A stretch of 64,000 nt of DNA from an uncultured delta proteobacterium (GCA_963796685.1 CAWCMR010000005.1:32001-96000), one strand, 5' to 3'. Shown: positions 2,031 through 54,500, counted from the stretch's first letter. Numbers and translations: made by a program. The notes: generated by a model not told the origin, from the sequence alone.

Positions 2031-2433
2031 AGCCGGCACGCCCGCCATCAACGGCGCCATCGCCCTTGGCGCCGCCATCGACTACGTCGAATCGTTCGGC
2101 ATGGCGGCCATCGAGCGCTACGAGGCCGAGCTTCTCGCCTACGCGGAAGCGGCCTTGAGCAAGCTCCCCGGCCTGCGCCTCATCGGCAAACCCAAGCACC
2201 GGGCCGGCGCCATCTCCTTCATGCTGGGCGACATCCATCCCCACGACCTCGGGACCGTGCTGGATCGCTATGGCGTCGCCATTCGCGCCGGACACCACTG
2301 CGCGCAGCCCACCATGAAACGCATGGGCGTGCCGGGAACCGCGCGCGCCTCGTTCGCCTTCTACAACAAGCCCGAAGAGGTCGACACCTTGGTCGACTGC
2401 CTCACGGAGGCCCAGAAAGTGTTCCACCCATGA
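2031..2433 (+). pseudogene. sufS: 5'-truncated cysteine desulfurase (C-terminal ~130 aa only), copy 1
   Basis: AGTP...HPHDLGTVLD..GVAIRAGHHCAQP..GTARASFAFYN. Lacks the N-terminal PLP-binding region. Confidence 0.9.
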
Positions 2434-2909
2434 ACGAGCTCGACCAGCTCTACCAGGAAGTGATCCTCGATCACCAGCGCAACCCGCGCAACTACGCCAA
2501 GTTGCCCACGGCCAACCACCAGGCCGAGGGCGCCAATCCCCTGTGCGGCGATCACGTCACCGTGTACCTCGACGTCAAGGACGGGGTCATCCGCGACATC
2601 AGCTTCCAAGGCGAGGGCTGCGCCATCGCCAAGGCCTCGGCGTCCATGATGACCTCGGTGGTGAAGGGAAAGTCCCTGGCCGACGCCTCCGAGACCTTCA
2701 AGCGCTTCCACCAGATGATCACCGGCGGCCAAGACCCCTGCTTCGACCTCGAAGACCTGGGCAAGCTCGCCGCCTTCTCCGGCGTGAGCGCGTTCCCCGT
2801 GCGGGTCAAGTGCGCAAGCCTGGCCTGGCACACCTTGAACGCGGCCATGCACGAAACCACGCCTCCCCCGCCCGCCGGAGGCGAGCCCAACAAGGAGCCC
2901 CAGAAGTGA
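2430..2909 (+). CDS. sufU: SUF system NifU-family protein, copy 1
   Basis: LYQEVILDH, NPLCGD, GEGCAIAKASASMM, FPVRVKCASLAWH; overlaps sufS stop. Confidence 0.93.
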   Translation: MNELDQLYQEVILDHQRNPRNYAKLPTANHQAEGANPLCGDHVTVYLDVKDGVIRDISFQGEGCAIAKASASMMTSVVKGKSLADASETFKRFHQMITGGQDPCFDLEDLGKLAAFSGVSAFPVRVKCASLAWHTLNAAMHETTPPPPAGGEPNKEPQK

Positions 2910-3301
2910 CGGCGACGCCCAATCCCCAGCCCGCACCCGCCCCATCACCCGATCCGCCATCGGGCTCCACGGCCAACGATGCGGCCACCGCCCAGTTGGA
3001 GCGCCTGGTGTGGCAGGAGCTGCGCGAGTGCTACGACCCGGAGATCCCCGTCAACATCGTGGAGCTGGGGCTCGTGTATGCCATGCGCTCCGAGCCCCTG
3101 CCCGAGGGCGGCCACCGGGTCGAGGTCCTCATGACCGTGACCTCACCCGCCTGTGGCATGTCCGAGATCCTGCGCTCGGAGGCCGACGCGCGCATCCGCA
3201 AGCTGCCCGGCGTCGCCCAGGTCGAGGTGGCCATCACCTTCGACCCGCCCTGGACCCCCGAGCTCATGAGCGACGACGCGCGGATGATGCTGAATTTGTG
3301 A
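2906..3301 (+). CDS. sufT: Fe-S assembly protein, DUF59/SufT (PaaD-like), copy 1
   Basis: YDPEIPVNIVELGLVY, MTVTSPACGM, FDPPWTPELMS; GTG start overlaps sufU stop. Confidence 0.88.
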   Translation: MTATPNPQPAPAPSPDPPSGSTANDAATAQLERLVWQELRECYDPEIPVNIVELGLVYAMRSEPLPEGGHRVEVLMTVTSPACGMSEILRSEADARIRKLPGVAQVEVAITFDPPWTPELMSDDARMMLNL

Positions 3302-3452
3302 CCAGCCCCTCGGCCTGGAACGCGCGCACGCGCTCTTCGCGCTCGACCTCCGGTATGGAGCCGTTGAGAGTCAGGGTGCGCAGGCCCGCCCAGGCAAGCA
3401 GGGGGCGGCAATCGCGCAACTTTCATGACTCGCTGACCGACATCCCTCCTTT

Positions 3453-4163
3453 GTGGAGGCAGCGGCATGCGCACAGCCCGCGTCTGCGGGACCGGTCTAT
3501 TCACGCCGGCAGCCGGAGAAGACTGCCTTGTACAGGGTCATGCAGGAACATCTGCTGACCTTCGAGCAGCAGTGGACCGACGAGGCCAATGGCCGGACAC
3601 TGCCCGGCTTCGTGACCGACGAGCTGCACGGATTCATGTCGTGCGGAATCTTGGGGCGAGGCTTCGCACACCTTTTCTGTAAGACCTGCCACGAACAGCG
3701 AGGTGGTTCCCTCACCCGTCGAGCCGGCGTCCCCCGCGCAGGACAAGCCCAAGAACACTTCGAGGTATATTTCTTGGTCCGAACTTTTGCGCCGCACCTT
3801 CGGGTTCGAAATCGCCTGCCAGAAATGTAAGGCCCCGCTCCGCCTGATCGCACTCATCAAGAGCGAGGACATCGCCAAGAAGATCCTGACCGCGATGCAC
3901 CTGCCAACGGAGATCCCGGAGCTACGCCCAGCGCGCCCGCCGCCCCTGAAGGCGGGTGGCAGCGCTGACTGGCTGAACTGAACACGACCTCTCCGGGGCT
4001 GTGATGGGGTGGACTACGCCTTGTGATTGAGACAGCCCGTTCGGCACCCGAATCGCGCCATCAAACCCGCTCCGTAGGGCACTCCAGGCGCACGCGAGGG
4101 TGTGGTGGCACAGGGCGGCACGGGTTTTCGGACCGGAAATCCCCCCCTTCGATTCGCTTATGC
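3453..4163 (+). mobile_element. Internally deleted IS91/ISCR-family rolling-circle element with putative ori end
   Basis: N-terminal Zn-binding region YSRRQPEKTALYRV..CGILGRGFAHLFCKTC is joined at ~3700 to the C-terminus SWSELLRRTFGFEIACQKCKAPLRLIALI..ARPPP; the catalytic core is absent. The downstream non-coding end finishes ...CCCTTCGATTCGCTTATGC at 4163. Confidence 0.8.
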
Positions 4164-4524
4164 ACCGCCTGCCGACTTGTCCGCAAGCACCGCCCCCGCA
4201 CCTCCGCCCCCGAGCACCCCCACGCCACCTGCGTTCACCAAGCCATCCAAGCCGCCCCCTTCTGGCACAAGGTGTCGGTACATCAGATGGGCCCAGCTTC
4301 TACGTCTGACGTTCGGGTTGACGGTCGACGAGTGTCCTGCATGTGGGGGCCGGATGAAACTGCGCGCTCTCGTTCGCGACCCCGAAAGCATCGAGCACTT
4401 CTTGCGCCACCAAGGCATCTGGTCGCCACCACAAGACATTGCGCCAGCGCGTGCGCCGCCCTACCACCGCAAGGTGACCCGCCTTTCGCCGACACGCCAG
4501 CAAGATCTCTTCCCCGAGACATGA
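4164..4524 (+). mobile_element. C-terminal remnant of a second, divergent IS91-family transposase
   Basis: RWAQLLRLTFGLTVDECPACGGRMKLRALV...APARAPP. Confidence 0.75.
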
Positions 4525-4843
4525 GCTTGGCCCGGCCTGCACGACAAGCGGCGCCCGGCTACCGGGCGTAGCCTGCCCTGCCGACGCCAAAGGCAATCTG
4601 GCTTACACACACGTTCCACCCCAATCAGCCAAATCCGCCCAGCCGCTCTCCCGTGGCCCCGGCGAACCCAATGCCCACGACCGGCTGACCCGGCCACCAG
4701 ATCTTCATTAATGCGATGTGCAACGGCTCAAATCGATTACGGACAGCACAGTGACAATCGTCAGCATCGCTTGACTTTGATAGTGTTCTTTAGCCACGCT
4801 TGGCCTTCAAGCGACTACCCTTGAACCGACGATAGGAGAAGCT

Positions 4844-5308
4844 ATGCATCGACCTCAATTTACGCAAGCCTGGGCTTCGTTTCAGACCGTTCTCGGAAAT
4901 GGCACGGTGGCAGCTGTCGGGAATCTTATTGGTGGCAAGGTGAAGGCGAATATCGATGCGAAGATCTTCACCAACGCCTGCGCCCTGCGAATGAGCTACG
5001 TCTTAAATCGAACAGGTGTGCGCATTCATCCGCACGCGAACCAGACTGTTTCCGGCGGCGACCACGATCACTACTACTTTCGCGTAAAGGATCTGCTTGA
5101 GTTTCTGCGCCGCACCTTTGGCAAGCCCGACGCCATTCTTCCTGGTTCCAACACGACGGCCCTGACCAGGAAGAAGGGACTACTCGTTTTTGAAGTCGCA
5201 GTTTGGCGGGACGCTACCGGCCATGCAACCTTGTGGGATGGTGTCTCTTGCTCGGACCATTGTTACTTTCTTGAGGCAAAACATCTCCTGTTTTGGGCCT
5301 TGTCATGA
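4844..5308 (+). CDS. Type VI secretion peptidoglycan amidase effector, Tae4 family
   Basis: NACALRMSYVLN (catalytic Cys), KKGLLVF, WRDATGHATLWDG (His), CSDHCYF. Confidence 0.88.
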   Translation: MHRPQFTQAWASFQTVLGNGTVAAVGNLIGGKVKANIDAKIFTNACALRMSYVLNRTGVRIHPHANQTVSGGDHDHYYFRVKDLLEFLRRTFGKPDAILPGSNTTALTRKKGLLVFEVAVWRDATGHATLWDGVSCSDHCYFLEAKHLLFWALS

Positions 5309-5679
5309 TGCGTGTTTTCGTCGGAACGATTGCTCTTCTGCTTGCCCGGCCAGCCGTGCCTGCCGATAGTTCCAAGCCTGAGGTGCCCAAGTATTCACAG
5401 GTGGAGCTGCTCAAGAATTACGCGACAGCGAGATGCCTAAGCCGAGCTTTTCCTGGCTCGGTCCTCGAACCTGATGCGGCCGCAAGTGCCGCCGGATACC
5501 TGGAACGAGGATCGGTAAGCGCCGATGCCTATGTCGAGATCGCAAAGCTTGCCGATACGTTCTTGGCGCGGAAATATCCCAGCCAGTCAGGCCAACCCTT
5601 GCAGACGATGAAATGCATCGATCTGTTTCAGAGCAAGGATCTGAACCTCGTCGTCAAACGGTTCGCGGGGAAGCGATAA
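5305..5679 (+). CDS. Amidase immunity protein, Tai4 family
   Basis: Signal peptide; LLKNYATARCL, DAAASAAGYLE, TMKCIDLF; ATGA overlap with the effector stop. Confidence 0.85.
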   Translation: MMRVFVGTIALLLARPAVPADSSKPEVPKYSQVELLKNYATARCLSRAFPGSVLEPDAAASAAGYLERGSVSADAYVEIAKLADTFLARKYPSQSGQPLQTMKCIDLFQSKDLNLVVKRFAGKR

Positions 5680-6059
5680 CGAGACGATCTTCGGCCTCAG
5701 GACGTGTGATGGAGTCTCTTTCTGGCTGACGGTGGTGATTCCGGCGCATGCGGAGGTCGTCAATCGACGAGCCGGACCATGTGTCCGCCGCAAGAACTCG
5801 GTACAGGTCGAATCGACGCCAGCCTTCATCGGGATTGACCGGGTGGTTGCCCAAGATCGGGTTGCAGCGAGGGTTGGGCAGCGCCACCATGGGGTCAAGG
5901 TGCGCCTGGATCTTGTGTGCGAACGCGCGAGAGCCGGCTGGGGACACACGAATCGCGTGCTACATACCTTGCACGAGCTGTGCTGCTGCGGTCGTCTCAG
6001 GCGACCCGCGCGTAGTACTCGTGATGTAGCCCACCGAGGACTGGTCGAGAAACAACGTC

Positions 6060-7000
6060 CTTGGGTGGAACCCGTCGCACGGGCGGCAACCAACGCGCGC
6101 CCGCTGGGGGTTCGTCGGCGGGCTGGTCTTGCTCCTCGGCGGTGCCGCGTCGCTGGTGGCAGCCGGCACGGTCAAGGTCAAGATGTTGCCCTTCGACAAC
6201 AAGGCCGAGTTTCAGGTTCAACTGGACATGCCCGCGGGAACGCCCCGTGAAGATGCTTTCGTCGTGGGCCAGGCTCTGGCGCGCCGGGTGTTGGAAGAGC
6301 CCGAGGTGCTGGATGTCCAGGTCTACGCCGGCGTGGCCGCGCCCTTCACGTTCGTGGGCATGGTTCGCCACAGCTTCTTCAGGGACGCGCCCGAGCAGGT
6401 CGATCTGCAAGTCAACCTGGTGCCCAAGGGCAAGCGCAAGGCGCAAAGCCGCGCCATCGTCATGCGTCTGCGGCCGGCGCTGGAGGCGATTGCCGGCGCC
6501 AAGGGCGGCCGGCTCAAGCTGGTCGAGATTCCGCCCGGCCCGCCCGTGCTCGATACCCTGGTCGCCGAGATCTACGGACCGAGTGTGGCAGAGCGCGATC
6601 GCCTGGCGCGCGAGACGCTGGCGGCCTTTCGCTCCACCGCGGGTGTGGTCGACATCGATTCGACCTTGAACCCGACAACACCCAAAATTTCCATCGACAT
6701 CGATCACGAGAAGTCGGCCCTGCACGGGGTGGCACCGGCGGCGGTGGTGCAGACCCTGGCCGCGGCCGGGTACGGCGCGCAACACGGGCTCTTCCACGGC
6801 GGGCATGGCGCCAATCAGATCCCCATCATCCTGCAGCTTGCGCCGGCCCAGCGCAGCCGCATCGATCAATTGCTGCAACTGACGGTGCCCGGGGTTCGCG
6901 GTCCGGTCCCACTATCCGAGCTGGTGCACTCCACCACCGGATTCGCCGATCCCGACATCTTTCACAAGAACCTGATGCCCGTGTCGTATGTCTTCGGCGG
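6060..7000 (+). pseudogene. Internal fragment of AcrB/CusA-family RND efflux permease
   Basis: VKMLPFDNKAEFQVQLDMPAGT, EIPPGPPVLDTLVAEIYGP, IFHKNLMPV; ~310 aa of a ~1000-aa family, both ends missing. Confidence 0.85.
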
Positions 7001-7039
7001 CCTGCGCCGCGGAAGCCAGCTCGGCGCCTCGCAGCTCCC

Positions 7040-7119
7040 TCCAGGCACGTGCGAGGGTGCGGTGGCGCCGGGAGGCATCGGTTCTCGGACCGGAATTGCC
7101 CCCTTCGATTTGGCCATGC
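7040..7119 (+). repeat. Second copy of the putative IS91 ori end (homologous to 4083-4163)
   Basis: Manual alignment gives about 80% identity over ~80 bp, both ending ...CCCTTCGATT..ATGC. Confidence 0.75.
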
Positions 7120-7191
7120 TCATGCGCTCAACCGACGAGGACGCCAGCGCGCGAAAGACCAAGCCAGATGGTTGCAGAACGCCGCGGTCAG

Positions 7192-7428
7192 AGCCTTTGA
7201 TGCCCTTGGAGCGCAGTCGTTCAAGCAGGCGATAGACGGTCCTAACTCACCGTCCAAGCGCCGTGGCCCCGGCCTCGACACCCAGTCGACGAGCCTCAAC
7301 CTGTCTGAGAATCCCGATGCGTTGCATTTCCTTCATGGTCAGTACCAACTTCTCGTCTGGTCCCATGGACCACGACAGTAGTGACATTTTTACTCGGCAG
7401 TTGGACTGACAGATTCATTCGGCTGCCA
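7192..7428 (-). mobile_element. Left end and 5' remnant of an IS1202/ISNCY-like transposase
   Basis: ATG 7366: MGPDEKLVLTMKEMQRIGILRQVEARRLGVEAGATALGR*VRTVYRLLERLRSKG (HTH with internal stop); upstream tandem motifs GCCGAATGAATCTGTCA and GCCGAGTAAAAATGTCA. Confidence 0.6.
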
Positions 7429-7464
7429 TGGGGACCACGACGCTCACGCCAAAATATTGGAAAC

Positions 7465-7479
7465 TGTGTATGCTACACA
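7465..7479. promoter_or_regulatory. Palindrome TGTGTA-tgc-TACACA just upstream of the HAD gene
   Basis: Perfect 6-bp inverted repeat 5 bp before ATG 7485; operator role is inferred. Confidence 0.3.
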
Positions 7480-7484
7480 CTGTC

Positions 7485-8201
7485 ATGCCTGTGTGCGGCA
7501 TCCTCTTCGACATCGGCGACACCCTCCTCGCCGCAACTCTCCTCCAAGAGCAAGCCTTGCGCGAGGCCAGCCACGCACTCGAGATGGCGGGGCTTGTCCC
7601 TGATAGCGAAAGCCTTCGCCTGGCGTATTCAAGTGCGGACCAGGAGGCCGGCTTTCAGGATCTCCCTGACCTCAACCACCTCTATGCCGACCCTCGCGTC
7701 TTCGAAAGAGCGTGCGGCTCACTCGGTTGGCAGAACAGTGACGCCCTGACCTGGGAATTCCTTACCATCCATCGAAACCAGGTACGGAAGTGCATCCGCC
7801 CCAATCCCGAGCATATCGAAAGCATTCAGCGACTTGCCTCGAGAGGCTTCCGCCTCGGAGTCGTTTCCAACGGCACAACGGTTGAGCAACAGGAGCAGCT
7901 TCGTCTTCTGGAGCTCGACCAGTTCTTCTCGCCGATAGTTGTTTCCCAACAAGCGGGCATCAGGAAGCCGACTCCGGCCATTTTCCACCTGGCGATACGA
8001 GATTGGGGGATCCCGGCTTCGCAGATCTTGATGGTGGGTGACCGTCCCGACATCGACATACTCGGCGCTAAGCGCGCCGGAATGAAAGCCGCATTAACTT
8101 GGGAATTCGTGTCCCACCCCACAGAGATGATCCCAGTTCTGCCCGACTGCCTGGTCGCCAGTATCGCCGAACTAGCCAGACGCCTGGAGGCTCTACCGTG
8201 A
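7485..8201 (+). CDS. HAD-IA family hydrolase (nucleotidase/phosphatase-like)
   Basis: ILFDIGDTL, VVSNG, RKPTPAIF, MVGDRPDIDILGA. Confidence 0.9.
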   Translation: MPVCGILFDIGDTLLAATLLQEQALREASHALEMAGLVPDSESLRLAYSSADQEAGFQDLPDLNHLYADPRVFERACGSLGWQNSDALTWEFLTIHRNQVRKCIRPNPEHIESIQRLASRGFRLGVVSNGTTVEQQEQLRLLELDQFFSPIVVSQQAGIRKPTPAIFHLAIRDWGIPASQILMVGDRPDIDILGAKRAGMKAALTWEFVSHPTEMIPVLPDCLVASIAELARRLEALP

Positions 8202-9599
8202 GTGCACAGCATCACCTATGCCGAAGAGAATCTCCTCGAGTTTCTCCAGAATCACGACATACCCGCGACGGAAGCAGCAGCATACGCGGTTACCTTGTGC
8301 CGAGGATACGCCACGTCGCGCCAATCCCTGCGCGACATCCTAGATATCTTCCTTCCGGCGCGCGAGGACAATGACGAGTCGGAAATCGCGAAGCATCTTG
8401 ATCACCTGCTTCAAATCGGCTTGTTGCAGGCGAGACGGCTCCCGGATGGCGAAGTCATCTCGGCCGCACATCCATGGCAACAAGCGCTTCATAAGGCCCT
8501 ACACCTTACAGACGGCTTGGATCGCGTGCTGGTCAGGACAGTTGAAGACAGCCGCAGATCATTCCAAGCAAAGTCACCACGAGAACTTCGCCTAATCGAA
8601 CGACTTGGCTCCGCCTCGTCTCCCCCTTCAGAGAAAGCACTTCAGCGTGCCATCATGGATGCCAGAAGCAGGTTACGCCTTGGCGTCTACTCCTCTCAGG
8701 GCTTGTTCCATACTGTCAGTCCCATTGTTCGACGGTCGCTGATTGACAACAAGGCTTTCGACGTTCAAATACTGATGTTTTCACCCGAGCTCGCGGCATC
8801 TATAGAGAAGAACGGGAACCTTGCTCGCCACGTTGAGAATCGCACAGCCGCGTGGCTGCAGCTCTTCGAGGGCGCCCGAAAAGAAGCCGAAGGTCGCGGG
8901 AACAAGCCTAGAATGGAGATTCGTTGGATTGACAATCCGCGGTTGATCGCTTTTCACCGTACTGTTCTCATCGATGAAGACGTATGGTTCTATGCGATCC
9001 ACCGTGTCGGAAAGGAGAGAGGCATCGATGCTGTTCTCTATCGCGGAACAGAGGGTGAGAGCAATATCTATAAGATGCTCGACTTCTATTGGCAGACAGC
9101 ATGGGCCGCTGCTCGACCGACTGTTTCGAGTGGCCGGCCCAGGCTATTCATCGGCTCTTCTTCAGAAGCCCTTCCGACTGCCCGCGCCCTGTGCGAAGCT
9201 TTGGAACGAGATGCAGAGACGACACTTTGGGACGATGGCATCTTTGAGCCTTCACTGACGCCGCTCGAATCGTTGGTGAAGAAGCTCGATGACTTCGACT
9301 TTGCCGTCCTGGTGGCGAGCGGTGATGACTCAACGGTCTCACGGGGTATTGCTGCGCCTTCCCCACGCGACAATGTTCTCCTTGAGCTCGGTATGTTCAT
9401 CGCTAAACTCGGACGTCATCGCACCTTTGTTGTGTCGAAGCGTGAGCCACATGCGAAGTTCCCCTCCGATTTGGCTGGTGTCGAGATTGTCACCTTCGAA
9501 GAGCGACAATACCAGAACCCCAAGGCGCAAGTCGCAGCCGCTAGCAACCGAATCCGAACCGCAATGTCCACCCTGGGGCCCATCAGGTCAGGGCGATAA
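8202..9599 (+). CDS. Multidomain protein: TrmB-like wHTH + PLD-like (DUF5919-type) domain + Cap12/Pycsar-type TIR domain
   Basis: C-terminal [45 protein letters not shown] (TIR, strong). Middle [27 protein letters not shown] (PLD-like, no HKD). N-terminal [19 protein letters not shown] (wHTH, weaker). Confidence 0.78.
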
Positions 9600-9753
9600 T
9601 GCCTTCGCGCGAACGAACCTCGGAACCGAGGCGCATTCTGATTCTCGGTGGTGCGGGGTTTGTCGGGTCGCACCTCTGTGCGGATCTTCTCTCCGAAGGA
9701 CATAAGGTTGCGGTCTTTGACAACCTAAGCAGTGGCCGGCGAGACCGCCTGGC
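9599..9753 (+). pseudogene. NAD-dependent epimerase/dehydratase, 3'-truncated by suf copy 2
   Basis: [36 protein letters not shown]; TAATG coupling to the TIR gene. Confidence 0.85.
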
Positions 9754-10098
9754 GAGTCGTTCGGCATGGCGGCCATCGAGCGCTACGAGGCCGAGCTTCT
9801 CGCCTACGCGGAAGCGGCCTTGACCAAGGTCCCCGGCCTGCGCCTCATCGGCAAACCCAAGCACCGGGCCGGCGCCATCTCCTTCATGCTGGGCGACATC
9901 CATCCCCACGACCTCGGGACCGTGCTGGATCGCTATGGCGTCGCCATTCGCGCCGGACACCACTGCGCCCAGCCCACCATGAAACGCATGGGCGTGCCGG
10001 GAACCGCGCGCGCCTCGTTCGCCTTCTACAACAAGCCCGAAGAGGTCGACACCTTGGTCGACTGCCTCGTCGAGGCCCAGAAAGTGTTCCGCCAATGA
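9754..10098 (+). pseudogene. sufS: 5'-truncated cysteine desulfurase, copy 2
   Basis: Near-identical to 2088-2433 but starts ~57 bp further into the gene than copy 1. Confidence 0.9.
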
Positions 10099-10574
10099 GC
10101 GAGCTCGACGACCTCTATCAGGAAGTGATCCTCGATCACCAGCGCAACCCGCGCAACTACGCCAAGTTGCCCACGGCCAACCACCAGGCCGAGGGCGCCA
10201 ATCCCCTGTGCGGCGATCACGTCACCGTATACCTCGACGTCAAGGACGGGGTCATCCGCGACATCAGCTTCCAAGGCGAGGGCTGCGCCATCGCCAAGGC
10301 CTCGGCGTCCATGATGACGTCGGTGGTGAAGGGAAAGTCCTTGGCCGACGCCTCCGAGACCTTCAAGCGCTTTCACCAAATGATCACCGGCGGCCAGGAT
10401 CCCTGCTTCGATCTCGAAGACCTGGGCAAGCTCGCCGCCTTCTCCGGCGTGAGCGCGTTCCCCGTGCGGGTCAAGTGCGCGAGCCTCGCCTGGCACACCT
10501 TGAACGCCGCCATGCACGAGACCACGACCGCGCCCACCAGCAGCGGCGAGCCCAACAAGGAGCCCCAGAAGTGA
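10095..10574 (+). CDS. sufU: SUF system NifU-family protein, copy 2
   Basis: Same motifs as copy 1 with a diverged C-terminal tail. Confidence 0.93.
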   Translation: MSELDDLYQEVILDHQRNPRNYAKLPTANHQAEGANPLCGDHVTVYLDVKDGVIRDISFQGEGCAIAKASASMMTSVVKGKSLADASETFKRFHQMITGGQDPCFDLEDLGKLAAFSGVSAFPVRVKCASLAWHTLNAAMHETTTAPTSSGEPNKEPQK

Positions 10575-10978
10575 CGGCGACGCCCGATCCCCAGCGCGCA
10601 CCCGACCCGCCATCCGACCCGTCACCCGACCCACCCTCGGGCTCCACCGCCAACGATGCGGCCACCACCCAGTTGGAGCGCCTGGTGTGGCAGGAGCTGC
10701 GCGAGTGTTACGACCCTGAGATCCCCGTCAACATCGTGGAGCTGGGGCTCGTGTACGCCATGCGCTCCGAGCCTCTGCCCGAGGGCGGCCACCGGGTCGA
10801 GGTCCTCATGACCGTGACCTCCCCTGCCTGTGGCATGTCCGAGATCCTGCGCTCCGAGGCCGACGAACGCATCCGCAAGCTGCCCGGCGTCGCCCAGGTC
10901 GAGGTGGCCATCACCTTCGACCCGCCCTGGCCCCCCGAGCTCATGAGCGACGACGCGCGCATGATGCTGAATTTGTGA
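10571..10978 (+). CDS. sufT: DUF59/SufT, copy 2
   Basis: YDPEIPVNIVELGLVY; 4-aa longer N-terminal linker; PPWPP instead of PPWTP. Confidence 0.88.
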   Translation: MTATPDPQRAPDPPSDPSPDPPSGSTANDAATTQLERLVWQELRECYDPEIPVNIVELGLVYAMRSEPLPEGGHRVEVLMTVTSPACGMSEILRSEADERIRKLPGVAQVEVAITFDPPWPPELMSDDARMMLNL

Positions 10979-11029
10979 TTGGGGAGAGCGCAGAGGGCGG
11001 AGGAGGACGCGGAGGGCGGAGAAGCTCGG

Positions 11030-11205
11030 GAGGGTCTGGCCGACTCCTCAAAGGGACATTCGAGACCGACACGATCTGCCCTCGCTGCAAGAGCCCTCTC
11101 CGCCTCATCGCCACGATCGAGACCGAGGACACCATCAAAAAGATTCTCTCTGCCATGGGGCTACCCAGTGAGGGGCCCAAACTTTGGCCCCCACGATCGG
11201 CCGCC
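11030..11205 (+). mobile_element. IS91-family transposase C-terminal remnant
   Basis: RLLKGTFETDTICPRCKSPLRLIATIETEDTIKKILSAMGLP, homologous to 3775-3910. Confidence 0.75.
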
Positions 11206-11338
11206 TTCCGGGGCGCCTCCCGTTGCCATTTGGGCATCGCCTTGGAGTGCGGAGGTCGATCCGCCCATGTTCGAGGTGCCACATCCCGCGTCCCGCTTCA
11301 TCGGTCGAAAGCGGCCCATGCTCGAAACTAGAAGATCA

Positions 11339-11719
11339 TCAGGCGTTCGCCGCTTTTCTGGCCCGTCGGGCGGCGATGAATGACCTTACAGTCAGCGCCA
11401 GAAAAGCCAAGCAAAGGACCGCCATGATGGATCGGGCCATGGCCGCTGGCGGACGCTTGATGGTTTCCCCGGCTGCCATTCTTACCAGTTGACCGATGCC
11501 GGTGACCGAACCCGCGAAGCCAATCAAAGCGGTCAACGCCGCTCCATGCATGGCATGCATGTGAATTTTAGGATTGCGCGCCAGAACACCGAGCACGACC
11601 AGCACGACGCCCACCGCCGCCGGAATCAACGACGTCGGGTGTTGCGCCCCCGTACTGAAGTATCCGGCGATGCCCAGCGCTACCAGTGCGACCCCGAATC
11701 CGATGGTTGTCCTTGTCAT
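11339..11719 (-). CDS. Small membrane protein (TMEM14-like)
   Basis: About four hydrophobic segments; GYFSTG..PTSLIPA. Confidence 0.7.
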   Translation of the reverse strand: MTRTTIGFGVALVALGIAGYFSTGAQHPTSLIPAAVGVVLVVLGVLARNPKIHMHAMHGAALTALIGFAGSVTGIGQLVRMAAGETIKRPPAAMARSIMAVLCLAFLALTVRSFIAARRARKAANA

Positions 11720-12117
11720 GGCCAGAATCTAGCAGGCCAACCCCACCAACGCTGCCCAACTGGCGTGCTGCCAAGGACATCTGACCTGCTATGCCGGCAG
11801 ATGCAAAGTCGAGGCGCCGGCTTGCCCGGCCGATGGTGGCCTGAATTCGGCCGTCGATGCGGAAAGCGGCGACCTGGCGACCCTTTCCCCCACTAGGCGG
11901 AAATATCGTGAGCGTGTCGGGGAGCTTCGACCTGACTGACGAGAGTCGCACTCCGGCCGCCGGTTTGCGCCGACCGATGAGTGCGCAGGAAAGCACGAGC
12001 CGCCGCCGTAGGGCTTTTCCACGCCAAACAAGCCCCCGTGTCTTTCTTCTCCGCGCAGACCCCGGAGAAGGCGCGCGCGGCACTTGAGGGCTGGAGAACG
12101 TCGAGTTCGGACAGCCT

Positions 12118-12145
12118 CGACCTGCCCACTTGGCTGGGCAGGTCG
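12118..12145. other. 11-bp perfect inverted repeat (hairpin)
   Basis: CGACCTGCCCA-cttggc-TGGGCAGGTCG, no U-tract. Confidence 0.5.
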
Positions 12146-18740: not shown

Positions 18741-20355
18741 TCAGGGAGCTGCGACTTGAGCGAGGGTGTAGTGGCTGGTGGCCGCGCGCGTGAGGCAATC
18801 CATGATGTCCTGGTATCGGACACTCGCCGGCGTGGTGGTGCGATTGAACAGCTCCTGGCCGGCATCCCACAAGAACGGAGCGATGCCGCGGTCGTGGGCC
18901 GCTTTGGTTACGTATTCGATCCAATATCGCCGGTAATTCTCGGCGCCGCTCGTGGCCAGTGTGGCCGTCGCGTCGTATTCCCCCATGATCACGGGAAGGC
19001 CGCTGTCGATGTAGGTTGTCTTCATCTTGTCGAATTCGCTCGTCACATACGACTCCTGCCCGTAGTTGTTCGAGCACGAATACGCGGCCCCCCAGCAGAG
19101 CGTCGAGCCGTTGATCGCGAATTCATAGGGCGTGTAGTAGTGATACGTCATGATCAAATGGTTTGCGATGGTGTCGGTCGGTAGCACGAACCCCGGCACG
19201 GTATCGTCGATGTTGGTATTGTAGCCCGGTACCACGAGGAATCGGCTCGCGTTGTTGCCCCCCGTCCCGCGAACCGTGGTCACGAAGTCCTGATCGAGGT
19301 TGTTGACGTCGGTGTACCAGGAGGCTTGCGCCGTTCCATAGCCGTCGTGAATCTCGTTCATCGCTTCGAAGACCAGTCGGTTGTCATAGCTCTTGAAGTG
19401 ATTCGCGATCTGGGTCCACACGGACTCGAATTCGTTGATCATCGTGGTGCCGTACATCTCGATGCCAAGCCACTGAATGTTCGCGACCGCGTCCGCGCCA
19501 TCGTGGTGCACGTTGATGATGACATTCAGTCCGGCAGTGAGCGCGTAGTTGACGACGGTATCGACGCGCGCCATCCAGGTGGCGTCGATGGTGTAGCTCG
19601 GTGCCGCGCCAAGGTGCTCGGACCACGTCACGGGGATGCGCACGGCTTTGAAGCCGTGGGCGGCGACCTGCGTGAGCAGGTCCTGCGTGACGAGCGGGTT
19701 CCCCCAGCAGGTTTCGTCGCTCGCTCCGCACCCGTCGGAATCCAGGCTGTTTCCCAGGTTCCATCCGAGCGTCCAGGTGGCGACGAGAATCCGCAGCCGT
19801 GGCGGGCGCCCCGGTCGACGTGGCTCCACCGGCTCCAGCACCCCCAGCCGCCGTTCCTCCTGTGGCCGTACCACCCGTGGCCGCGCCACCCGTGCCATGG
19901 GTCCCCCCGGTGCCGGCTCCGCCCGAGCCGGTGCTGCCACCGCTCGCCGCTCGGCCGCCGGAGCCACCGCTCGCCGTGCCTCCGGAACCTCCCCCGACCC
20001 CCGTCATCCCTCCACCTCCCGACGGTGTAGTGCCGCCGCCAGTCCCGCCGCTTGCGCCACCCGTACCGGGTGCCCCTCCCGACGCCCCCGTCCTGCCGCC
20101 GCTCCCGAGCGCGCCGCCCGAACCGGTCGCGCCGCCCGCGCTTCCCCCGGAGCCTTGTGCGCCGCCCGAGGATTGGCTGCCGCCGTTGCCTAGTGCTCCA
20201 CCGGACGACGGGCTGCCACCGCTTCCGCGTGTTCCGCCCGAGGATTGGCTCCCGCCAGCCGCCCCGCCCGCGCCTCCGCTGTGACCGGTGTTTCCGCACC
20301 CTCCGAGCAAGAGGGCGACGGAGGCAGTGACGATGGCAAACGGTAGCTTCTTCAT
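18741..20355 (-). CDS. GH5 endoglucanase lipoprotein with Gly/Ser/Thr linker (1-nt frameshift near 19789)
   Basis: Lipobox LLGGC; GWNLGNSLD, VRIPVTW, INVHH, FEAMNE, HYY, IMGEY, WD. Confidence 0.9.
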
Positions 20356-34186: not shown

Positions 34187-34299
34187 ATAACCGATCGTGA
34201 TATGGAAATCGCGGTTTCTGTCCGTAATCGATTTGGGCCGTCACGCCTTCGTAGCGTTCACGGAACGCATGTCCATCGGATGAAACATGCGCACCGACG

Positions 34300-34776: not shown

Positions 34777-34828
34777 TGATTGCGTTCCTTTCAAATATTC
34801 GTGGCACTGCGCAGCCGCTTTCGCCTGC

Positions 34829-34844
34829 TGCAAAGCTGAGACCA
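34829..34844 (-). promoter_or_regulatory. sigma54-like promoter
   Basis: TGGTCTCAGCTTTGCA (GG-N10-GC). Confidence 0.5.
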
Positions 34845-34891
34845 AGATCCAGCTCACCCCGGCCTTCACGGATGCAGCCCAGAGGCAGGCC

Positions 34892-34907
34892 TGGCACGGT
34901 ATTCGCT
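34892..34907 (+). promoter_or_regulatory. sigma54-like promoter
   Basis: TGGCACGGTATTCGCT. Confidence 0.6.
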
Positions 34908-34955
34908 ACCTTTGGGTAGCGTCCCAAGCCTCGTGGCAGGAGAAACCGAATCTGA

Positions 34956-42200: not shown

Positions 42201-42396
42201 CGCGCTACACGTCGCGCAAGTGCTGGACCTGGCTTCGGGCGGCGGCATCCCGCCGACGCTGCCCGAGCGTCCGATGGTCGAGCAGCGCAATCGCACGACG
42301 CGCGCATTGGCCGTGCGCACCGGACTGGTGCTGGGTGGCGCTGCGATCGCGTTGTTGCTGGGTTGGCGGTCGTGGAGAGGGACGCGCGGAAGGTAG
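39217..42396 (+). CDS. FAD-binding and Fe-S-binding oxidoreductase (GlcD/GlpC-type); start uncertain
   Basis: RGGGTSLAGQ, GEHGDG, CVGVGAC, CLSCKGCKGECP, CCG, HGHCHQ. Confidence 0.92.
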   Translation: MRAPLDLARLRTRAEPGRLKRLHTDDARSAIGREAVRALSSDLVRVIEGEVRFDEGSRALYATDGSNYRQAPIGVVIPRHAQDVENTVRLARKYNAPLLSRGGGTSLAGQCCNVAVVMDFSKYMHHVLEIDSGQKLARVEPGCVLDRLREAATREADLTVGPDPATHSRCTLGGMLGNNSCGSHSLLSKKHGLGLRTSDNTQSLDVLLYDGTRLHVGATPPDKLEMFSRQGGRVGEIYDGLRGLVDRYGQVIREHYPKLGRRVSGYNLDDLLPENGFHVARALVGSESTLVTILEATLHLVPAPKQRTVVMLGFTDVVEAAHCSVEVLAFEPIACEAIDDLLFRDVRKKGDENASLAILPRGPAFLLVEFGGESKAETDGQAGRMIEHLGKLKKHRPVDHRAYDDREHEDMVWSVREGALGSTAWVPGLPDAWPGWEDSAVPVERVADYVHELRDLFHTFGYNPALYGHMGQGCIHCRVGFDLYTQAGIDHWRGFLDQAVALVTKFGGVASGEHGDGQARAELLPKIYGPELMQAFADFKRIWDPDNRMNRGKVIDLDGAAYLVTQNLRVGPDYNPPQPATHFTYVEDHHDFGRAVLRCVGVGACRREGGGTMCPSYMVTREEQSSTRGRARMLFEMMNGEIITDGWKSEAVKDALDLCLSCKGCKGECPVNVDMATYKAEFLSHYYQGRLRPRHAYAFGLIHHWARLASHMPGLANLMTQTSGLSAVAKWLAGAHPARVLPPFAARSFQTWFRTHARLNQAAQQVLLFPDTFNNYFHPDVAIAATHVLERAGFDVRVPSQDLCCGRPLYDYGFLDRATRQWCGLLDKLRPYLQASIPMVVLEPSCYSAFKDELCNLMPNDQDARRLSELSMTLSEFLRRHAPGFSPPKVARKALLHGHCHQKALDTRNDKELGKLFAEKAVLAKLGIEVRQPEVGCCGMAGAFGYEKSNDHYEVSIACGERMLLPEVRQTPAGEIIIADGFSCQEQILQSTDRHALHVAQVLDLASGGGIPPTLPERPMVEQRNRTTRALAVRTGLVLGGAAIALLLGWRSWRGTRGR

Positions 42397-42406
42397 GGAG
42401 GAGCCA

Positions 42407-43402
42407 ATGCATGTGGGCAAAGACACGGTTGTGGTGATAACGGGCGCCTCGGGCGGTGTGGGCCGGGCCACCGCCCGCCTGTTCGGCGAGCGCAGGGCCA
42501 AGCTGGCCCTGCTGGCCCGGGGTCGCGATGGCGTCGAGGCCGCAAAACGCGACGTGGAAGAGCGCGGCGGTCGCGCCCTGGCCATCCCCACCGACGTCAG
42601 TCAGTTCGCCGAAGTGGAAGCCGCCGCCGCGCAGGTCGAACGTGAGCTGGGGCCCATCGACGTGTGGATCAACAACGCCATGGTCTCGATGTACAGCCCG
42701 TTCTTGCAGATGCGAGCTGACGAGTTTCGCCACATCACCGAGGTGACTTTCCTGGGCACCGTGCACGGGACCAAGGCGGCCCTGACCCGCATGATCGAGC
42801 GCGACCGCGGCGTCATCGTGCAAGTCGGCTCGGCGCTGGCGTTCCGGTCGATTCCCCTGCAAAGCGCCTACTGTGCCAGCAAACACGCCATCCAGGGCTT
42901 CACGGAATCGCTGATGTCCGAGCTGATTCACGAGGGCAGCCACCTCCACGTCGCGGTGGTGAACATGCCTGCGCTGAATACCACGCAGTTCACCTGGACC
43001 AAGAACCGCATGCCCAACAAGGTCCGGCCAGTCGGCACGATCTACCAGCCCGAGGTCGCAGCCGACGCCATCCTATTCGCGATCGAGCACCGGCGTCGGG
43101 TAATCAAGGTCGGCTACACCACGGTCAAGGCGACCTTGGGCGAGAAGATCATCCCCGGCTTGCTCGACCATCACCTCGCCACAGCGGCCTGGGACGGGGC
43201 CATGTTGCCCGATTTGGAAACCTCGGGTCGGCCGGACAACTTCTGGCAGCCTCTCCCCGGCGACCACGGTGCGCACGGCGACTTCGATGTGAACGCGAAA
43301 CGGTTCAGCCTCGAGCTGTGGCTGGACAAGCGCCGTTGGGGCGTCGCGGCTGCGGTGTTGCTGGCAGCAGCGGGGCTGTGGCTGTGGAAAGAGCGCCGGT
43401 GA
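42407..43402 (+). CDS. SDR family oxidoreductase
   Basis: TGASGGVG, NNA, YCASK. Confidence 0.92.
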   Translation: MHVGKDTVVVITGASGGVGRATARLFGERRAKLALLARGRDGVEAAKRDVEERGGRALAIPTDVSQFAEVEAAAAQVERELGPIDVWINNAMVSMYSPFLQMRADEFRHITEVTFLGTVHGTKAALTRMIERDRGVIVQVGSALAFRSIPLQSAYCASKHAIQGFTESLMSELIHEGSHLHVAVVNMPALNTTQFTWTKNRMPNKVRPVGTIYQPEVAADAILFAIEHRRRVIKVGYTTVKATLGEKIIPGLLDHHLATAAWDGAMLPDLETSGRPDNFWQPLPGDHGAHGDFDVNAKRFSLELWLDKRRWGVAAAVLLAAAGLWLWKERR

Positions 43403-50647: not shown

Positions 50648-50717
50648 GCCCGCAGGACGACGACGAAGGTCTCGCCCCCGACCATCGCGGTCCGCTACGA
50701 CGCGGCTCGTTGCCGCC

Positions 50718-50766
50718 TGGCTCACGGGAGCTGGGAGTAGGTCACGGGGTTCGGGTAGTTGCCGGT
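50718..50766 (+). repeat. 49-bp direct repeat, identical to 51571-51619 (3' end of the GH8 gene)
   Basis: TGGCTCACGGGAGCTGGGAGTAGGTCACGGGGTTCGGGTAGTTGCCGGT at both sites. Confidence 0.95.
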
Positions 50767-50792: not shown

Positions 50793-51170
50793 TCAGCAAG
50801 GCAACGATTTTATGGGATACGCCATGATATCGCGGTCGCGGGTGACGAGAGTCAGTCCATCTGCCCCCGCCTGGGCCACCAGCATGCGATCGAACGGATC
50901 GCGGTGTAGCCCGGGCAGCCTGCGCAGTCGCTGTACATGGCGAAGATGAACCGGCAGCTCGATGAAGCGTAGACGCTTCATTTGCGCCTCCAGGTCGTCC
51001 GGCACATCGAGCTTGCCGAGAGCTCGCTTGATTTCCATCTCCCAAGCAGAAACCACGCTGACCAGGACCGTAGTCTCGGGCCGTTCAAGGAGTTGGCGAA
51101 CCCGCGCAGAAAGCTCGCCCGGCGAGGCAAGTGCCCAGAGTAGCGCGTGGGTGTCGAGGAGCAGCCTCAC
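50793..51170 (-). CDS. vapC: PIN-domain (VapC-type) toxin
   Basis: LLLDTHALLW, SVVSAWE, HRDPFDRMLVAQA, LVTRD. Confidence 0.92.
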   Translation of the reverse strand: MRLLLDTHALLWALASPGELSARVRQLLERPETTVLVSVVSAWEMEIKRALGKLDVPDDLEAQMKRLRFIELPVHLRHVQRLRRLPGLHRDPFDRMLVAQAGADGLTLVTRDRDIMAYPIKSLPC

Positions 51171-51436
51171 CTCGACCGTTTCTTGGATTGCCGGGCGGGG
51201 ACCACCGTGCCCTCGAAGAGACGAATGATCTCATCAGGCGTTTCGTCGAAATCGTCGGCCGCGCGCACCTTGCCCTCCCAACCACCCAGGCTGCGTGGTG
51301 TTTCCTCGGGAAGGCAGGAGACCAGGCGGACGTATGGACGCCCCGACTTGGCGATGACGATGTCCTCCCCCGCCACCGCTTCTTCGAGGAGACGGGAAAG
51401 GTGCGTCTTAGCCTCCTGGACGTTCACCGCTTTCAT
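51167..51436 (-). CDS. Phd/YefM-family antitoxin
   Basis: VNVQEAKTHLSRLLEE..GEDIVIAKSGRP. Confidence 0.92.
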   Translation of the reverse strand: MKAVNVQEAKTHLSRLLEEAVAGEDIVIAKSGRPYVRLVSCLPEETPRSLGGWEGKVRAADDFDETPDEIIRLFEGTVVPARQSKKRSR

Positions 51437-51442: not shown

Positions 51443-51471
51443 AGTCTGGTCTGGTCTGGTCTACTTGTCAA
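51443..51471 (-). promoter_or_regulatory. TA promoter with (AGACC)n repeats
   Basis: TTGACA-agtagaccagaccagac(17)-CAGACT, 6 bp before the ATG. Confidence 0.6.
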
Positions 51472-51473
51472 GC

Positions 51474-51562
51474 TCGCGCAGGTCGAGGTCGCCATCACCT
51501 TCGACCCGCCCTGGACGCCCGAGCCCATGAGCGACGACGCCCGCATGATTCTGAATTCGTAA
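51474..51562 (+). pseudogene. sufT: Third, diverged copy of the sufT 3' tip
   Basis: AQVEVAITFDPPWTPEPMSDDARMILNS* vs AQVEVAITFDPPWTPELMSDDARMMLNL*. Confidence 0.9.
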
Positions 51563-51574
51563 GCCCGGCGTGGC

Positions 51575-54500
51575 TCACGGGAGCTGGGAGTAGGTCACGG
51601 GGTTCGGGTAGTTGCCGGTCAGGAAGAGGTCGGAGTAGACGCCCAGGGATTCCTGGAAGTACCGGTCGTTCTCGAGCGTGGTCGAGATCGCTTCCTCGAC
51701 GGCCTCGCGCCGGATATCCGGGGTCGTGGTGCCGCCGTCGTCGAACAGGCTGACGTAGCTGCACATGCCCATGTTGACCGTGTAGCCGTTGTGCCCGATG
51801 GCCGGATCGCAGTTGGTCACCGTGCCGCTGCCGTTCAAGCTGTCGCAGATCGACGAGAAGCGATTGGCGTTCGTGGCCACGGGATTCTTCTTGTAGAAGT
51901 TGGTGAAGAAGTCCTGGGTGGCGTCGATCTTGGCCCGCATCTGGGACTTCTGTGAATAGTGCGTCGACGAGTTCGCCGCGTTCTCGGGTAGCGAGGTGTT
52001 GTCGCCGAACCACGCGGCGTCGATACCCTCGCGCCACAGGCCACGCAGCTCTTCGTAGGTACCCTCGGACGCCGTGGCGCAGGGGGAAGCGATGGAGCCA
52101 ACAGCACCGATGAGGCCCGGATTGACCCCGGCCGCGTCGTAGCATTGCTCCAGCATCTTGTAGACCGTCTGCGCGGCCCGGTACCAGAAGTCCTTGTGGC
52201 TTTGGCCGTTAGAGGCCTGGCTGCCGGAGGCATGCTGGGCGAGGAAGTCGCCGAACACCCTGAAATAGCCCGGCGGGTAGTAGTCGAGTCGGATCTTGAT
52301 GTCCTGGCCCTTGTCATACACACAAGGTTTGCCCGGCTGCCCGGAACAATCCTTGCTGTCGGTGTCTCCGATGGACGGGTAGTTGTATTGGCCGTCGTAG
52401 GCCGCGTCCACCTCGCACTCCATCTTGGTCAGCCAGTCGACGGCGGCATCCGTCCAGGTACCGGAAGACTGCGGCGGCTTGTCGTTCGGCCACTGCAACG
52501 CCGCATAGACGAGACCGATGGCGATGTCCACGTCACCGTCGAAGGCGCTGTCGCCGATGCCACCGCAGCTATCGCCGGCCGAGGTGTCGCACGGCTTGTC
52601 CAGTGGACGACAGACTGCCCGCTCCCTGCCACTCCCAGCCCATGAGCCCGCCACAGTACTTCTTCGCAGTCTGCGAAAGGTAGTGCCGGACGAAGAGCCA
52701 GAGCTTGCCCACCAAGTCCTTGTCGCCGACAGCGGCAGCGATGGCCATGCCGTAGCCCTGGCCCTCGCTCACGGTTTCTGGCGGATCGGTGTGCACCCGC
52801 GCGGCGTCGGGGTCGCAGTCGCCATTGATGATGTAGTTCTGCTTCCAGATCCCGTAGCGCTCCCACACGAAGGCGTTGAACAGATCCTGGACCGTGGCCT
52901 GGTCGGGATAGACATAGGCCAGGGACGCGCCGTAGGGATACATGAACTTGGACTTGCTGTACGGGAACCAGGCCCCGTTGCCGAACCCCACGGTCACCGG
53001 CGTGGCAGGCGGCTTGGGCGCGCACGCGCTGTCGTTCCACACGCCGGTGGCGGACCAATCGCCGTTGGTGCCATCGGGGTAGTAGTCGAAGAACTTGAAT
53101 TGCGGTTGGTTGATCCCGGTCGGAACTTGCGTATCGGGCTTGCCGTAGTACCAGCGCAGCCAGTAGTCACCCGGGGTGGTCGGGAAGCCGGTTCTGGGCG
53201 TGACCGTGTTCCATTCCGTGGGGCTGCGAGTCTTGTCCACAGCACGCCAGGTGGTCGTGGCGGTGAACGACGAATCCGGCACCGGACACTCGAACCACGG
53301 CCGGTCCTGCTCGCGCCAGCAGATCACCTTGAGCGCGCTCGCTCCCGTGACCTCCATCTCGATCCACTTGGGCATGAACTCGGGCTTGGGGAAGAAGGTG
53401 AAGGTCTTCTGCCCGGCCCAGATGTAGCGGAAGTGGATGGTGTGGTAGCTCGGTGGCTGGGGCGGGTTGCACGGATCCACAGCCACGGTGCTGCCCGCGC
53501 AGCCCGGCCCGGGGTTCGAGGTGTAGACGAAGTAGCTGTTGGGCTGCAGCGACCAGTCCATGCACACGGTGGCAGAGGGTGGGCTCTTGTTGTCGGGCGC
53601 GCCGGCGTAGCCGATCCAGAGCTCGGTGGTGGTTCCGCGCGCCGGAAGCTGGATGCCGTTGGTGTAGAGGTTCTTGGATTCGTCGGGGTAGCGAAAGACG
53701 ATTGACGGCGCGGTGCCCGTCGCTGGCCAATCGGCGTTGGGAATCAGGACGTAGTACCAGGGACAGGTGCCATCCTGGAACTCGAGCATGGCGGTGAGCT
53801 CGCAACTGCCCACGCCCGTCACCTTGAGGCTCGACGGATAGGGAGGCGGCGTGAAGCCGAGCTTGGTCGCCAAGTCGACCGGGCAGGCCGAACCGGCGTA
53901 AGGTGTCGCCGGATTCGTCGGATCGTTCCACGGCCAACGGAAGTGGACCTTGGTGTAGCCCGTGGGCGGAGTTTCGTCCGGCGGGGTTCCGACCTTGCAA
54001 GCCGGGGCGGTCAAGGTCGTCGGGTCGGAAGTAAGGTGGAACTTTCCGCTGCTGTAGTCGGTGGCCAGCGCACTGCTCGATCCGGTGTCCTCGATCCAGA
54101 ACTCCTTGCTGCTGTTCACCGAGGTGATGCTGATGGGACCCGAGGGATTGCCCGCCGGGCACATGTCGGCGCCGACGGCTTGAATCTCGATGGTGGTCGT
54201 GGTCTTGGGAAGGCAGACGGAATAGTAGGTGCAGGGGGGATTGCCGTTGATGTCGGTGGCTACCATCCAGTCGAGCGCCGTACTTCTGGTAGCCGCTCGT
54301 ATCGATCACGACAACTTCGAGCGGCGGTGTCGAAAGCGTGCCAAGCGTGGGCGTAACCCCCTTGGACCACACGTCGCGCACGTGCACCCGCACCTGCCCT
54401 GCCGGGCATACCAGCGTTTCCTGAGGCGGCGGCAGATCCACCGGCCTGGCCACGTCTGGAGCGGCGTCCGGAGTGGTAACCACCGCCGCATCCGGCGGCG

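Follow-up and report, generated by a model that had tools for sequence, protein, structure and literature searches.

Read-through capture by an ISCR-like element and suf operon tails in a sufT-GH8 island of an uncultured deltaproteobacterium

The window analyzed here is a 64,000-nucleotide stretch of an uncultured delta proteobacterium (GCA_963796685.1, CAWCMR010000005.1:32001-96000), corresponding to positions 32001 to 96000 of contig C5 in the source genome, G000. It carries three 3′ ends of the suf Fe-S operon in one orientation, the last of them beside a gene related to glycoside hydrolase family GH8, within an island that separates sufT from this GH8-like gene. The account we lean towards is that an element resembling the insertion sequence common region (ISCR) group built the island through read-through capture and stacking at its ori end, with the suf tails mainly as passengers. 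The original prediction had described an ISCR-like gene-capture array anchored by suf homology. Its gene capture was borne out, as the element belongs to the IS91 superfamily and carries variable upstream DNA, including non-suf DNA; suf homology as the anchor was not supported as stated, the one duplicated unit with a readable direction ending at ori ends. Most of the system had been missed, including at least 15 further suf tails outside the window, the intact transposases and the remnants at 4243-4461 and 7030-7112.

The source assembly (7.3 Mb in 26 contigs; 88.6% complete; 6.5% contamination) was compared with the congeners G001, G002, G003, G004, G005 and G010. Independent data on junctions came from short soil-metagenome contigs (best share, 0.22), which gave no coverage at window positions 1-1200, 7200-8000 and 8800-9600. 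Positions given without a contig are those of the window, which has a G+C content of 63.7%. Relatives of the transposase were found in metagenome-assembled genomes of uncultured Myxococcales and deltaproteobacteria, and the host is presumably a soil myxobacterium.

Intact transposases were found outside the window and represent two element subfamilies. A full C5-type element (C5:6986-8821) with a 500-amino-acid open reading frame (ORF) lies directly after the suf operon, and the C9-type ORF codes for 501 amino acids; the two transposases are 71% identical, and the 3′ parts of the elements are only ~69% alike. The C9-type ORF matched PF14319 (Zn_Tnp_IS91) with 56.8 bits (cut-off, 26.3) and PF04986 (Y2_Tnp) with 78 bits (cut-off, 20.9), and an HFH motif is visible in the translation. 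For both subfamilies the best NCBIfam match was ISCR clade Ia (NF052416; 291 to 292 bits over positions 13 to 506 of 509), neither reaching its cut-off of 925 bits. The IS91 equivalog NF033538 matched the N-terminal part only, with 88.6 and 98.6 bits, under its cut-off of 125 bits. On these profile matches, the element is best placed as a distant ISCR-like member of the IS91 superfamily. Genome-wide, 24 Y2_Tnp matches were identified, half of them (12/24) in C9:8-131 kb with open frames of 489 to 509 amino acids.

Among the 25 longest inverted pairs of each element, no terminal inverted repeat linking the termini was identified. No target duplication was seen, and the flanks of the two shortest C9 copies share no repeat. 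Two stems were noted, one of 12 bp at a distance of 65 to 100 nt from the ori end and the other, CCTCC-N5-GGAGG, conserved close to the left end; the end hairpins folded no better than shuffled sequences (z, +1.7 to −1.9). The last four bases are subfamily-specific (GGCC, GCAC, GGTC, GCGC) and could belong to either the element or the target. A derived unit has the terminal 8 bases of the element (TTATGCAC) in two tandem copies at its ori end (C5:12988-13003), which may be a footprint of initiation or termination.

Contig C9 holds 12 copies of the element, 99.3 to 100% identical and all on the + strand. Their right ends and that of an additional ori-end fragment (C9:126207-126339), 13 in total, all finish in ...CCTATGGCC, a fixed end that lies downstream of the transposase gene. 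The left ends spread from 0 to at least 3.7 kb upstream, giving unit lengths of 1759, 1760, 1819, 2162, 2371, 2527, 2641, 2837, 2985, 2986 and 2986 bp and one unit that reaches at least 3.7 kb further; one unit, interrupted by an insertion, spans 8877 bp. When compared with copies from other genomes, the clade-wide left end was placed ~41 bp inside even the shortest C9 copies, and all 12 therefore carry at least 41 bp beyond it; suf DNA is present in 10 of the 12. A fixed right end combined with nested left ends is the signature that read-through (one-ended) rolling-circle transposition would be expected to leave. In other genomes, copies of this clade share 190 to 1500 bp of upstream DNA unrelated to suf, which makes leaky termination a property of the clade and suf the passenger in G000. 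The C9 array is not at the suf locus, and no empty site could be defined for it, with only patchy flank matches up to C9:160000 in five congeners. The array region also contains ~11 kb (C9:89500-100540) that is self-similar at many offsets in steps of ~72 bp (74 to 76% identity).

Co-mobilized DNA was identified at several places. C5:8821-12995 duplicates window positions 312-4165 with 98.5 to 99.8% identity. The right edge of both copies is an ori end, and the left edge at C5:8821 is the first base past the ori end of the full C5-type element. The C5:8821 copy stops at residue 92 of an ORF of 275 amino acids, while the window copy runs on leftward. Homologues of this gene in four genomes (G051, G032, G012 and G031) align without a break at residue 92, which identifies the copy in the window as the source of the duplicate. 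A 3.85-kb unit comprising a gene fragment, a DUF2169 gene, a suf tail and a transposase-less element was thus copied and set down exactly at the ori end of another element. No Pfam family was found for the 275-amino-acid gene, leaving an initial impression that it was PAAR-like unsupported. On contig C9, positions 3765-8937 and 61184-66356 are 99.87% identical and include a Metallophos gene. A further gene fragment of 1108 bp (C9:115904-117011), 99.8% identical to part of a gene in G002, ends at the unit junction C9:117012; the rest of the gene continues in G002 and was not found past the C9 unit. This junction had been considered as an empty site in G002, and was rejected as such because the left flank matches and the continuation is absent across the unit, as in a captured fragment.

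Three exact junctions of an ori end with a following unit were found: at C5:8820/8821, in another genome (L036, 4869/4870), and in a metagenome contig where window position 3819 is joined directly to an ori end of the C9 type. In L036, a C9-like ori end (...CTATGGTC) is followed immediately by a 697-bp suf tail and a C5-type deletion derivative. Such junctions occur between different subfamilies and away from suf, and with the duplicated units they demonstrate read-through capture and head-to-tail stacking.

These same cases bear on the alternative that an older, unrelated island pre-existed and that units transposed into it many times, the DNA between copies being target rather than cargo. 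Flanks could be judged for only a minority of units, a 39.5-kb block of the island has no element remnants, and a strand bias in insertion by HUH transposases might account for the single orientation. Against this stand the three cases in which flanking DNA moved with a unit or ended as a truncated foreign fragment, the short decayed units with ori remnants at 4243-4461 and 7030-7112, and the patchiness of the cargo in five congeners; overall, we regard a pre-existing island as improbable.

The intact, co-oriented suf operon occupies C5:1-6985, 25 kb left of the window, with sufB and sufD at C5:1914-4740 (SUFBD_core matches). Whole-genome BLAST identified suf tails on C5 at 5703-6985 (the operon's own), 10850-12131, 24871/25414-26680, 34032-35301, 41750-42978 and 83474-83560, that is, five long tails and one stub of 87 bp; there is one further tail on C4, and there are nine on C9. 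The last three of the C5 series are those seen in the window, where, as originally described, their starts differ and the sufT stop is their common end:

2032-3301, + strand: suf tail copy 1, with the 3′ part of sufS (2032-2433), complete sufU (2430-2909) and complete sufT to 3301
9750-10978, + strand: suf tail copy 2, a mosaic, with its left edge at 9750/9753
51474-51562, + strand: sufT stub (copy 3), 87 bp with the stop, still attached to the ancestral spacer and GH8

On C5, the tails start at operon positions 5160, 5703, 5703, 5756 and 6896, all reach the sufT stop, and are direct, variably 5′-truncated duplicates of a single upstream segment, lying between cargo blocks and each followed by the element. 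A repeat search of the window matched 2088-2387 to 9753-10052 (99%) and 2924-3223 to 10601-10900 (93%), and identified an 87-nt repeat family at 3213-3299, 10890-10976 (98%) and 51474-51560 (91%). By Pfam, copies 1 and 2 both encode a SufS C terminus, SufU (NifU_N) and SufT (FeS_assembly_P), and in both sufU and sufT are complete open frames. Transposase sequence follows each of them, as had been noted: tblastn aligned residues 1 to 91 from position 3453, 152 bp past the stop of copy 1, and residues 436 to 486 from 11044, 66 bp past that of copy 2. Linkage of suf tails with the element was also found in two other genomes. A cargo gene cut at the left junction of both copies, as had been claimed, was not confirmed: the DUF2169 frame stops at 1969-1971, before 2031, and the ORF encoding a protein with a Toll/interleukin-1 receptor (TIR) domain stops at 9597-9599, before 9750; gene-cutting junctions are present elsewhere, at C5:8821 and C9:117012.

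The tails had been taken for different alleles, and they are indeed distinct. Between copy 1 and the operon, 54 of 77 substitutions fall at codon position 3, and translations place the indels among copies in a Pro/Ala-rich N-terminal linker of SufT. Recombination among the tails is evident from 100 variable columns, with all four gametes present at 234 of 1176 informative site pairs. A mosaic is also seen within copy 2, its 5′ part resembling the allele at C5:10850 and its 3′ half equal to the operon allele of C4 at variable sites. The tails are accordingly distinct alleles that recombine, mosaics derived from functional alleles.

The whole operon is present twice, as the 11.2-kb contig C4 contains native upstream DNA syntenic with that of congeners together with a second version of C5:1-7378 (98.56% identity), and breaks off at the deletion breakpoint of the element, a branch point of repeats. 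C4 may represent either the true left end of the C5 array or another strain. The duplication on C4 and the 6.5% contamination are what could be said for an artefact of co-assembled strains with different suf alleles. Such an origin would hardly account for copies that each have unique junctions inside 425-kb contigs, for analogous arrays in other assemblies, or for element ends that are consistent across 13 copies; in addition, the left junction of copy 2 (9753) is bridged with 0 mismatches by a 168-nt metagenome contig (run X3), a contig of independent format. We consider an artefact barely credible.

Comparison with congeners identified the insertion site. In alignments of G010, G001 and G005, the whole suf operon, with sufT at its end, runs straight into GH8, the empty junction that the island would be expected to have in relatives; by coordinates, sufT abuts GH8 in G003 and lies within ~0.55 kb of it in G004. 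Copy 3 aligns with this ancestral junction, and its stop is 12 bp from that of the convergent GH8-like gene, which had correctly been named as the likely ancestral neighbor. The empty junctions of the congeners imply that ~76.5 kb (C5:6986-83473) were inserted in G000. At the right edge of the array the following features were identified:

50715-50766, strand not assigned: duplicate of the last 52 nt of the ancestral spacer plus the GH8 3′ end; right edge of the array, beginning GCCTGG
50796-51436, − strand: PIN toxin and Phd/YefM antitoxin pair (Pfam), 95% identical in G002
51575-54305, − strand: GH8-like gene, ancestral right neighbor of sufT, in two overlapping frames of 397 and 578 amino acids

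The GH8-like gene is a single open frame of 800 to 1144 amino acids in the congeners and is probably frameshifted in G000. The hexamer GCCTGG also ends the spacer after the operon's sufT (C5:7001-7006). With the 52-nt duplicate, the stub and the real GH8 end, the ancestral junction is present as a 145-bp duplication around the PIN/Phd pair, which points to at least one homology-dependent insertion for which long tails would not be needed. The closest congener, G002, carries a different island of ~33 kb at this junction, in which pieces of sufT (132 bp) and sufU (134 bp) were found along with an element remnant, and in which the PIN/Phd pair again lies beside GH8. The G002 element remnant is interrupted by a dispersed repeat of ~250 bp that also occurs at C9:137326-137577, C8:175709-175960, C11:98637-101795 and several places on C25; on C11, a 156-bp part of it forms a tandem array.

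A direct repeat of a gene 3′ end on either side of an island is typical of integrase-borne elements, and the island could in principle be integrase driven at the 3′ end of sufT, the 87-bp repeats being attL and attR. The repeats are only 91% identical, no tyrosine integrase (PF00589, Phage_integrase) was found in C5:1-100000, the nearest being at C5:107668, and no recombinase family was found among the scanned ORFs of the window and C5:12991-32000 (C5:8821-12990 was covered only via its window duplicate). An integrase origin is accordingly very improbable, in keeping with the original description of the island as integrase free. Elsewhere in the genome, three adjacent tyrosine-recombinase genes with identical bit scores recur at five places (C10:145683-148065, C11:4722-7104, C12:30594-32976, C25:681470-683852 and C10:129275-131657), which indicates a putative multicopy element.

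In the account we lean towards, the ISCR-like element, which lies ~100 bp downstream of sufT and occurs as two subfamilies, would begin its replication at the fixed ori end, on the downstream side of the transposase gene. Replication would then proceed back through the element, and the stop at the ter end would often fail, each new copy thereby taking a different upstream length. The carried DNA would usually be the suf operon tail and sometimes further genes, and transposase-less deletion derivatives among the units would have to move in trans. Units would land preferentially at the ori end of an existing element, giving head-to-tail stacks in one orientation. The space between sufT and GH8 would in this way have filled with captured fragments and with accessory genes for type VI effector/immunity, TIR, toxin-antitoxin and glycan functions. 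Though mainly passengers, the suf tails are long direct repeats and therefore also recombine with each other and with the operon. We infer the rolling-circle chemistry and the mobilization in trans, and likewise the mode of landing, whether by transposase or by host recombination.

A different role for the tails would follow if read-through circles re-entered by RecA recombination of the suf tail with the resident operon, the operon tail being a docking site through which the island grows and suf remaining intact. The island does sit between a complete sufT and an 87-bp stub attached to the ancestral neighbor, with empty sites in congeners and no tyrosine integrase in C5:1-100000. The tails are mosaic, and copy 2 is part unit type and part C4 operon allele, as a single crossover predicts. 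A foreign suf tail in G004 is 95% identical to those of G000, while the operon of G004 itself is 77% identical, and G002 has a different island at the same junction. A passage on ISCR1 describes its units entering the integron 3′ conserved segment (3′-CS) by homologous recombination (PMC8386438). However, C5:8821-12995 is bounded by ori ends on both sides, where a suf crossover would have ended the duplication inside the tail, and exact junctions between ori end and unit occur away from suf and between subfamilies that are only distantly alike in their 3′ parts. Neither the C9 array nor the G004 unit is at a suf locus, GCCTGG is all that the spacer has in common with the right edge of the array, and the same element clade carries non-suf passengers in other genomes. 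RecA docking as the general explanation is on this evidence possible yet rather unlikely. Homology in suf as an anchor is a live addition to capture and stacking, possible but unproven because ori-end stacking explains most junctions and also occurs away from suf.

Several observations weigh against capture and ori-end stacking as the origin of the island. The right edge of the array (50714/50715) is not an ori end, and the stub and duplicated GH8 end require another, homology-dependent event. No element remnant was detected in the 39.5-kb block; together with the right edge, this means that stacking does not explain the whole island, and a single insertion into the sufT-GH8 spacer followed only by stacking was rejected as a full account. 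No C9 unit demonstrably begins exactly at the preceding ori end, and circular intermediates were not observed. No conserved tetranucleotide like those of IS91 (CTTG, GTTC or GTCC) was seen outside the ori end of the C9 copies, where the bases vary, and the sole target signal is a terminal GC in the left flanks of 6 of the 12 C9 units (P = 7e−4, post hoc). The source genome is a metagenome assembly, and the only window junction bridged by other data is 9753; no soil-metagenome contig bridges the junctions at 312 or 2031.

The remaining features of the window lie between the suf tails and to the left of copy 1:

312-2031, − strand: block captured in unit A, with codons 1 to 92 of the 275-amino-acid gene and the DUF2169 gene (604-1917), duplicated at C5:8821-10849 (99.8%) with a base-exact left edge
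3302-4165, + strand: spacer and internally deleted, nonautonomous C5-type element keeping 394 bp of the 5′ part and 470 bp of the 3′ part, with the breakpoint at 3697 and the ori end ...TTATGCAC at 4165
4243-4461, + strand: decayed remnant of an older transposase C terminus (tblastn, 33% identity to residues 419 to 489; E value, 4e−6)
4784-5676, + strand: Tae4 amidase effector and Tai4 immunity pair of type VI secretion (Pfam E values, 6.5e−21 and 1.1e−10)
6030-7029, + strand: fragment of an AcrB-family transporter gene (profile positions 533 to 827 of 1021; Pfam E value, 1.6e−20)
7030-7112, + strand: element ori-end remnant that closes another decayed unit and matches the terminal ~85 nt of the C5-type element at ~83% identity
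7410-9599, + strand: HAD hydrolase (7410-8198) and TIR-domain protein (8202-9599), by Pfam
10979-11208, + strand: C9-type spacer (66 bp) and decayed 3′ piece of a C9-type element, 92% and 83.6% identical to C9 units; ori end missing
11209-50714, strand not assigned: accessory block of 39.5 kb with kinases, GH5, pectate lyase, PLD, transketolase, FAD oxidase and others (Pfam)

None of the elements within the window has an intact transposase. The deletion derivative at 3302-4165 is 99.4 to 99.5% identical to the ends of the full C5-type element, and soil-metagenome contigs diverge exactly at 3697 and 4165/4166, into the full element and other flanks, which fits a mobile element with those ends. 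The whole 275-amino-acid gene corresponds to C5:31763-32587, reaching window position 587, and the DUF2169 gene was identified with a Pfam E value of 4e−50. Together with Tae4/Tai4, these two genes suggest that the array carries type VI secretion cargo. The product of 8202-9599 (+ strand) is a protein of 465 amino acids with a C-terminal TIR domain of the CAP12/Pycsar type and is a possible defense effector. Left of the window, C5 carries a sugar-nucleotide/glycan gene set and a DDE transposase as cargo, and matches of the 39.5-kb block to five congeners were confined to short, scattered stretches. In one contig from a soil metagenome (run X2), positions 6526 and 8609 are separated by just 22 nt of other sequence, indicating that some populations are without the segment of AcrB fragment, ori remnant and HAD gene. 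Tandem-like repeats at 55585-56213 (period, 147 nt) and 20137-20256 (36 nt) lie in G+C-rich ORFs.

Taken further, and only tentatively, such islands in nonclinical bacteria could arise in two steps, ori-end stacking being followed by the use of a housekeeping-operon tail as a portable homology arm that docks at suf in any congener without an integrase. If so, the sufT-GH8 junction would be a genus-wide exchange site for competition and defense genes. In either case, one genome keeps a whole nested series, with 12 fresh copies, older decayed ones and two or three non-suf captures caught in the act. It would place the IS91/ISCR mechanism among the forces shaping an environmental chromosome, where it gathers type VI effector, TIR, toxin-antitoxin and glycan genes. 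The landing of units gives testable predictions, and the system is a natural one in which to ask whether carried housekeeping DNA guides integration. For annotators, multiple intact sufU and sufT copies can be transposon passengers and call for caution.

To our knowledge, nearly all known cases in which IS91/ISCR elements captured DNA by read-through come from resistance plasmids, with a few from plant pathogens, and most are single events. A full-text literature search returned no paper on sufT together with IS91, and among papers pairing IS91 with Myxococc none, judged by title and abstract, concerned such an array. Novel features here are the host and its housekeeping passenger, a nested series of this scale and freshness, stacking junctions exact to the base, and cargo other than resistance genes.

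Among known systems, translocatable units of IS26 also land beside an existing copy and build co-oriented arrays; unlike the G000 element, IS26 has a DDE transposase with a different chemistry, and its units are bounded by whole IS copies. Helitrons share an HUH rolling-circle transposase and the capture of gene fragments past a weak terminator, as outlined in part of PMC4778049, but differ in helicase fusion, domain make-up, 3′-end capture and kingdom. With IS91, IS801 and IS1294, the G000 element shares functionally distinct ends, the absence of target duplication, an ori downstream of tnpA and the carriage of adjacent DNA when termination fails. For IS91, a passage in PMC13181058 places oriIS downstream of the transposase gene and has a missed terIS stop mobilizing adjacent DNA, with read-through of 1 to 10%. 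Here, by comparison with that rate, 10 of 12 C9 copies carry suf DNA, and the 12 copies form a natural nested series; no CTTG/GTTC-type tetranucleotide is seen outside the ori end, and the scores of 88 to 99 bits for the IS91 equivalog are below its cut-off of 125.

The closest likeness is to ISCR1 and complex class 1 integrons, and the general ISCR model lies behind the comparison. The transposase is of ~500 amino acids, with ISCR clade Ia as its best NCBIfam match over the full length; DNA of variable length upstream of the transposase gene is mobilized, units stand in tandem, and between the cargo blocks lie direct duplicates of a single upstream segment, truncated to different extents. The G000 element retains its ter-proximal region, whereas ISCR1 is not known to have a terIS. 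It is only a distant relative (291 bits against a cut-off of 925), it resides in an uncultured soil myxobacterial chromosome and not on a plasmid or in an integron, the tail of a housekeeping Fe-S operon is duplicated in place of the 3′-CS, and the cargo is not antibiotic resistance. For ISCR1, host recombination through the duplicated segment has been invoked in a section of PMC8386438. By analogy, the mechanism would be that of IS91/ISCR elements, in an architecture that resembles the ISCR1 complex integrons.

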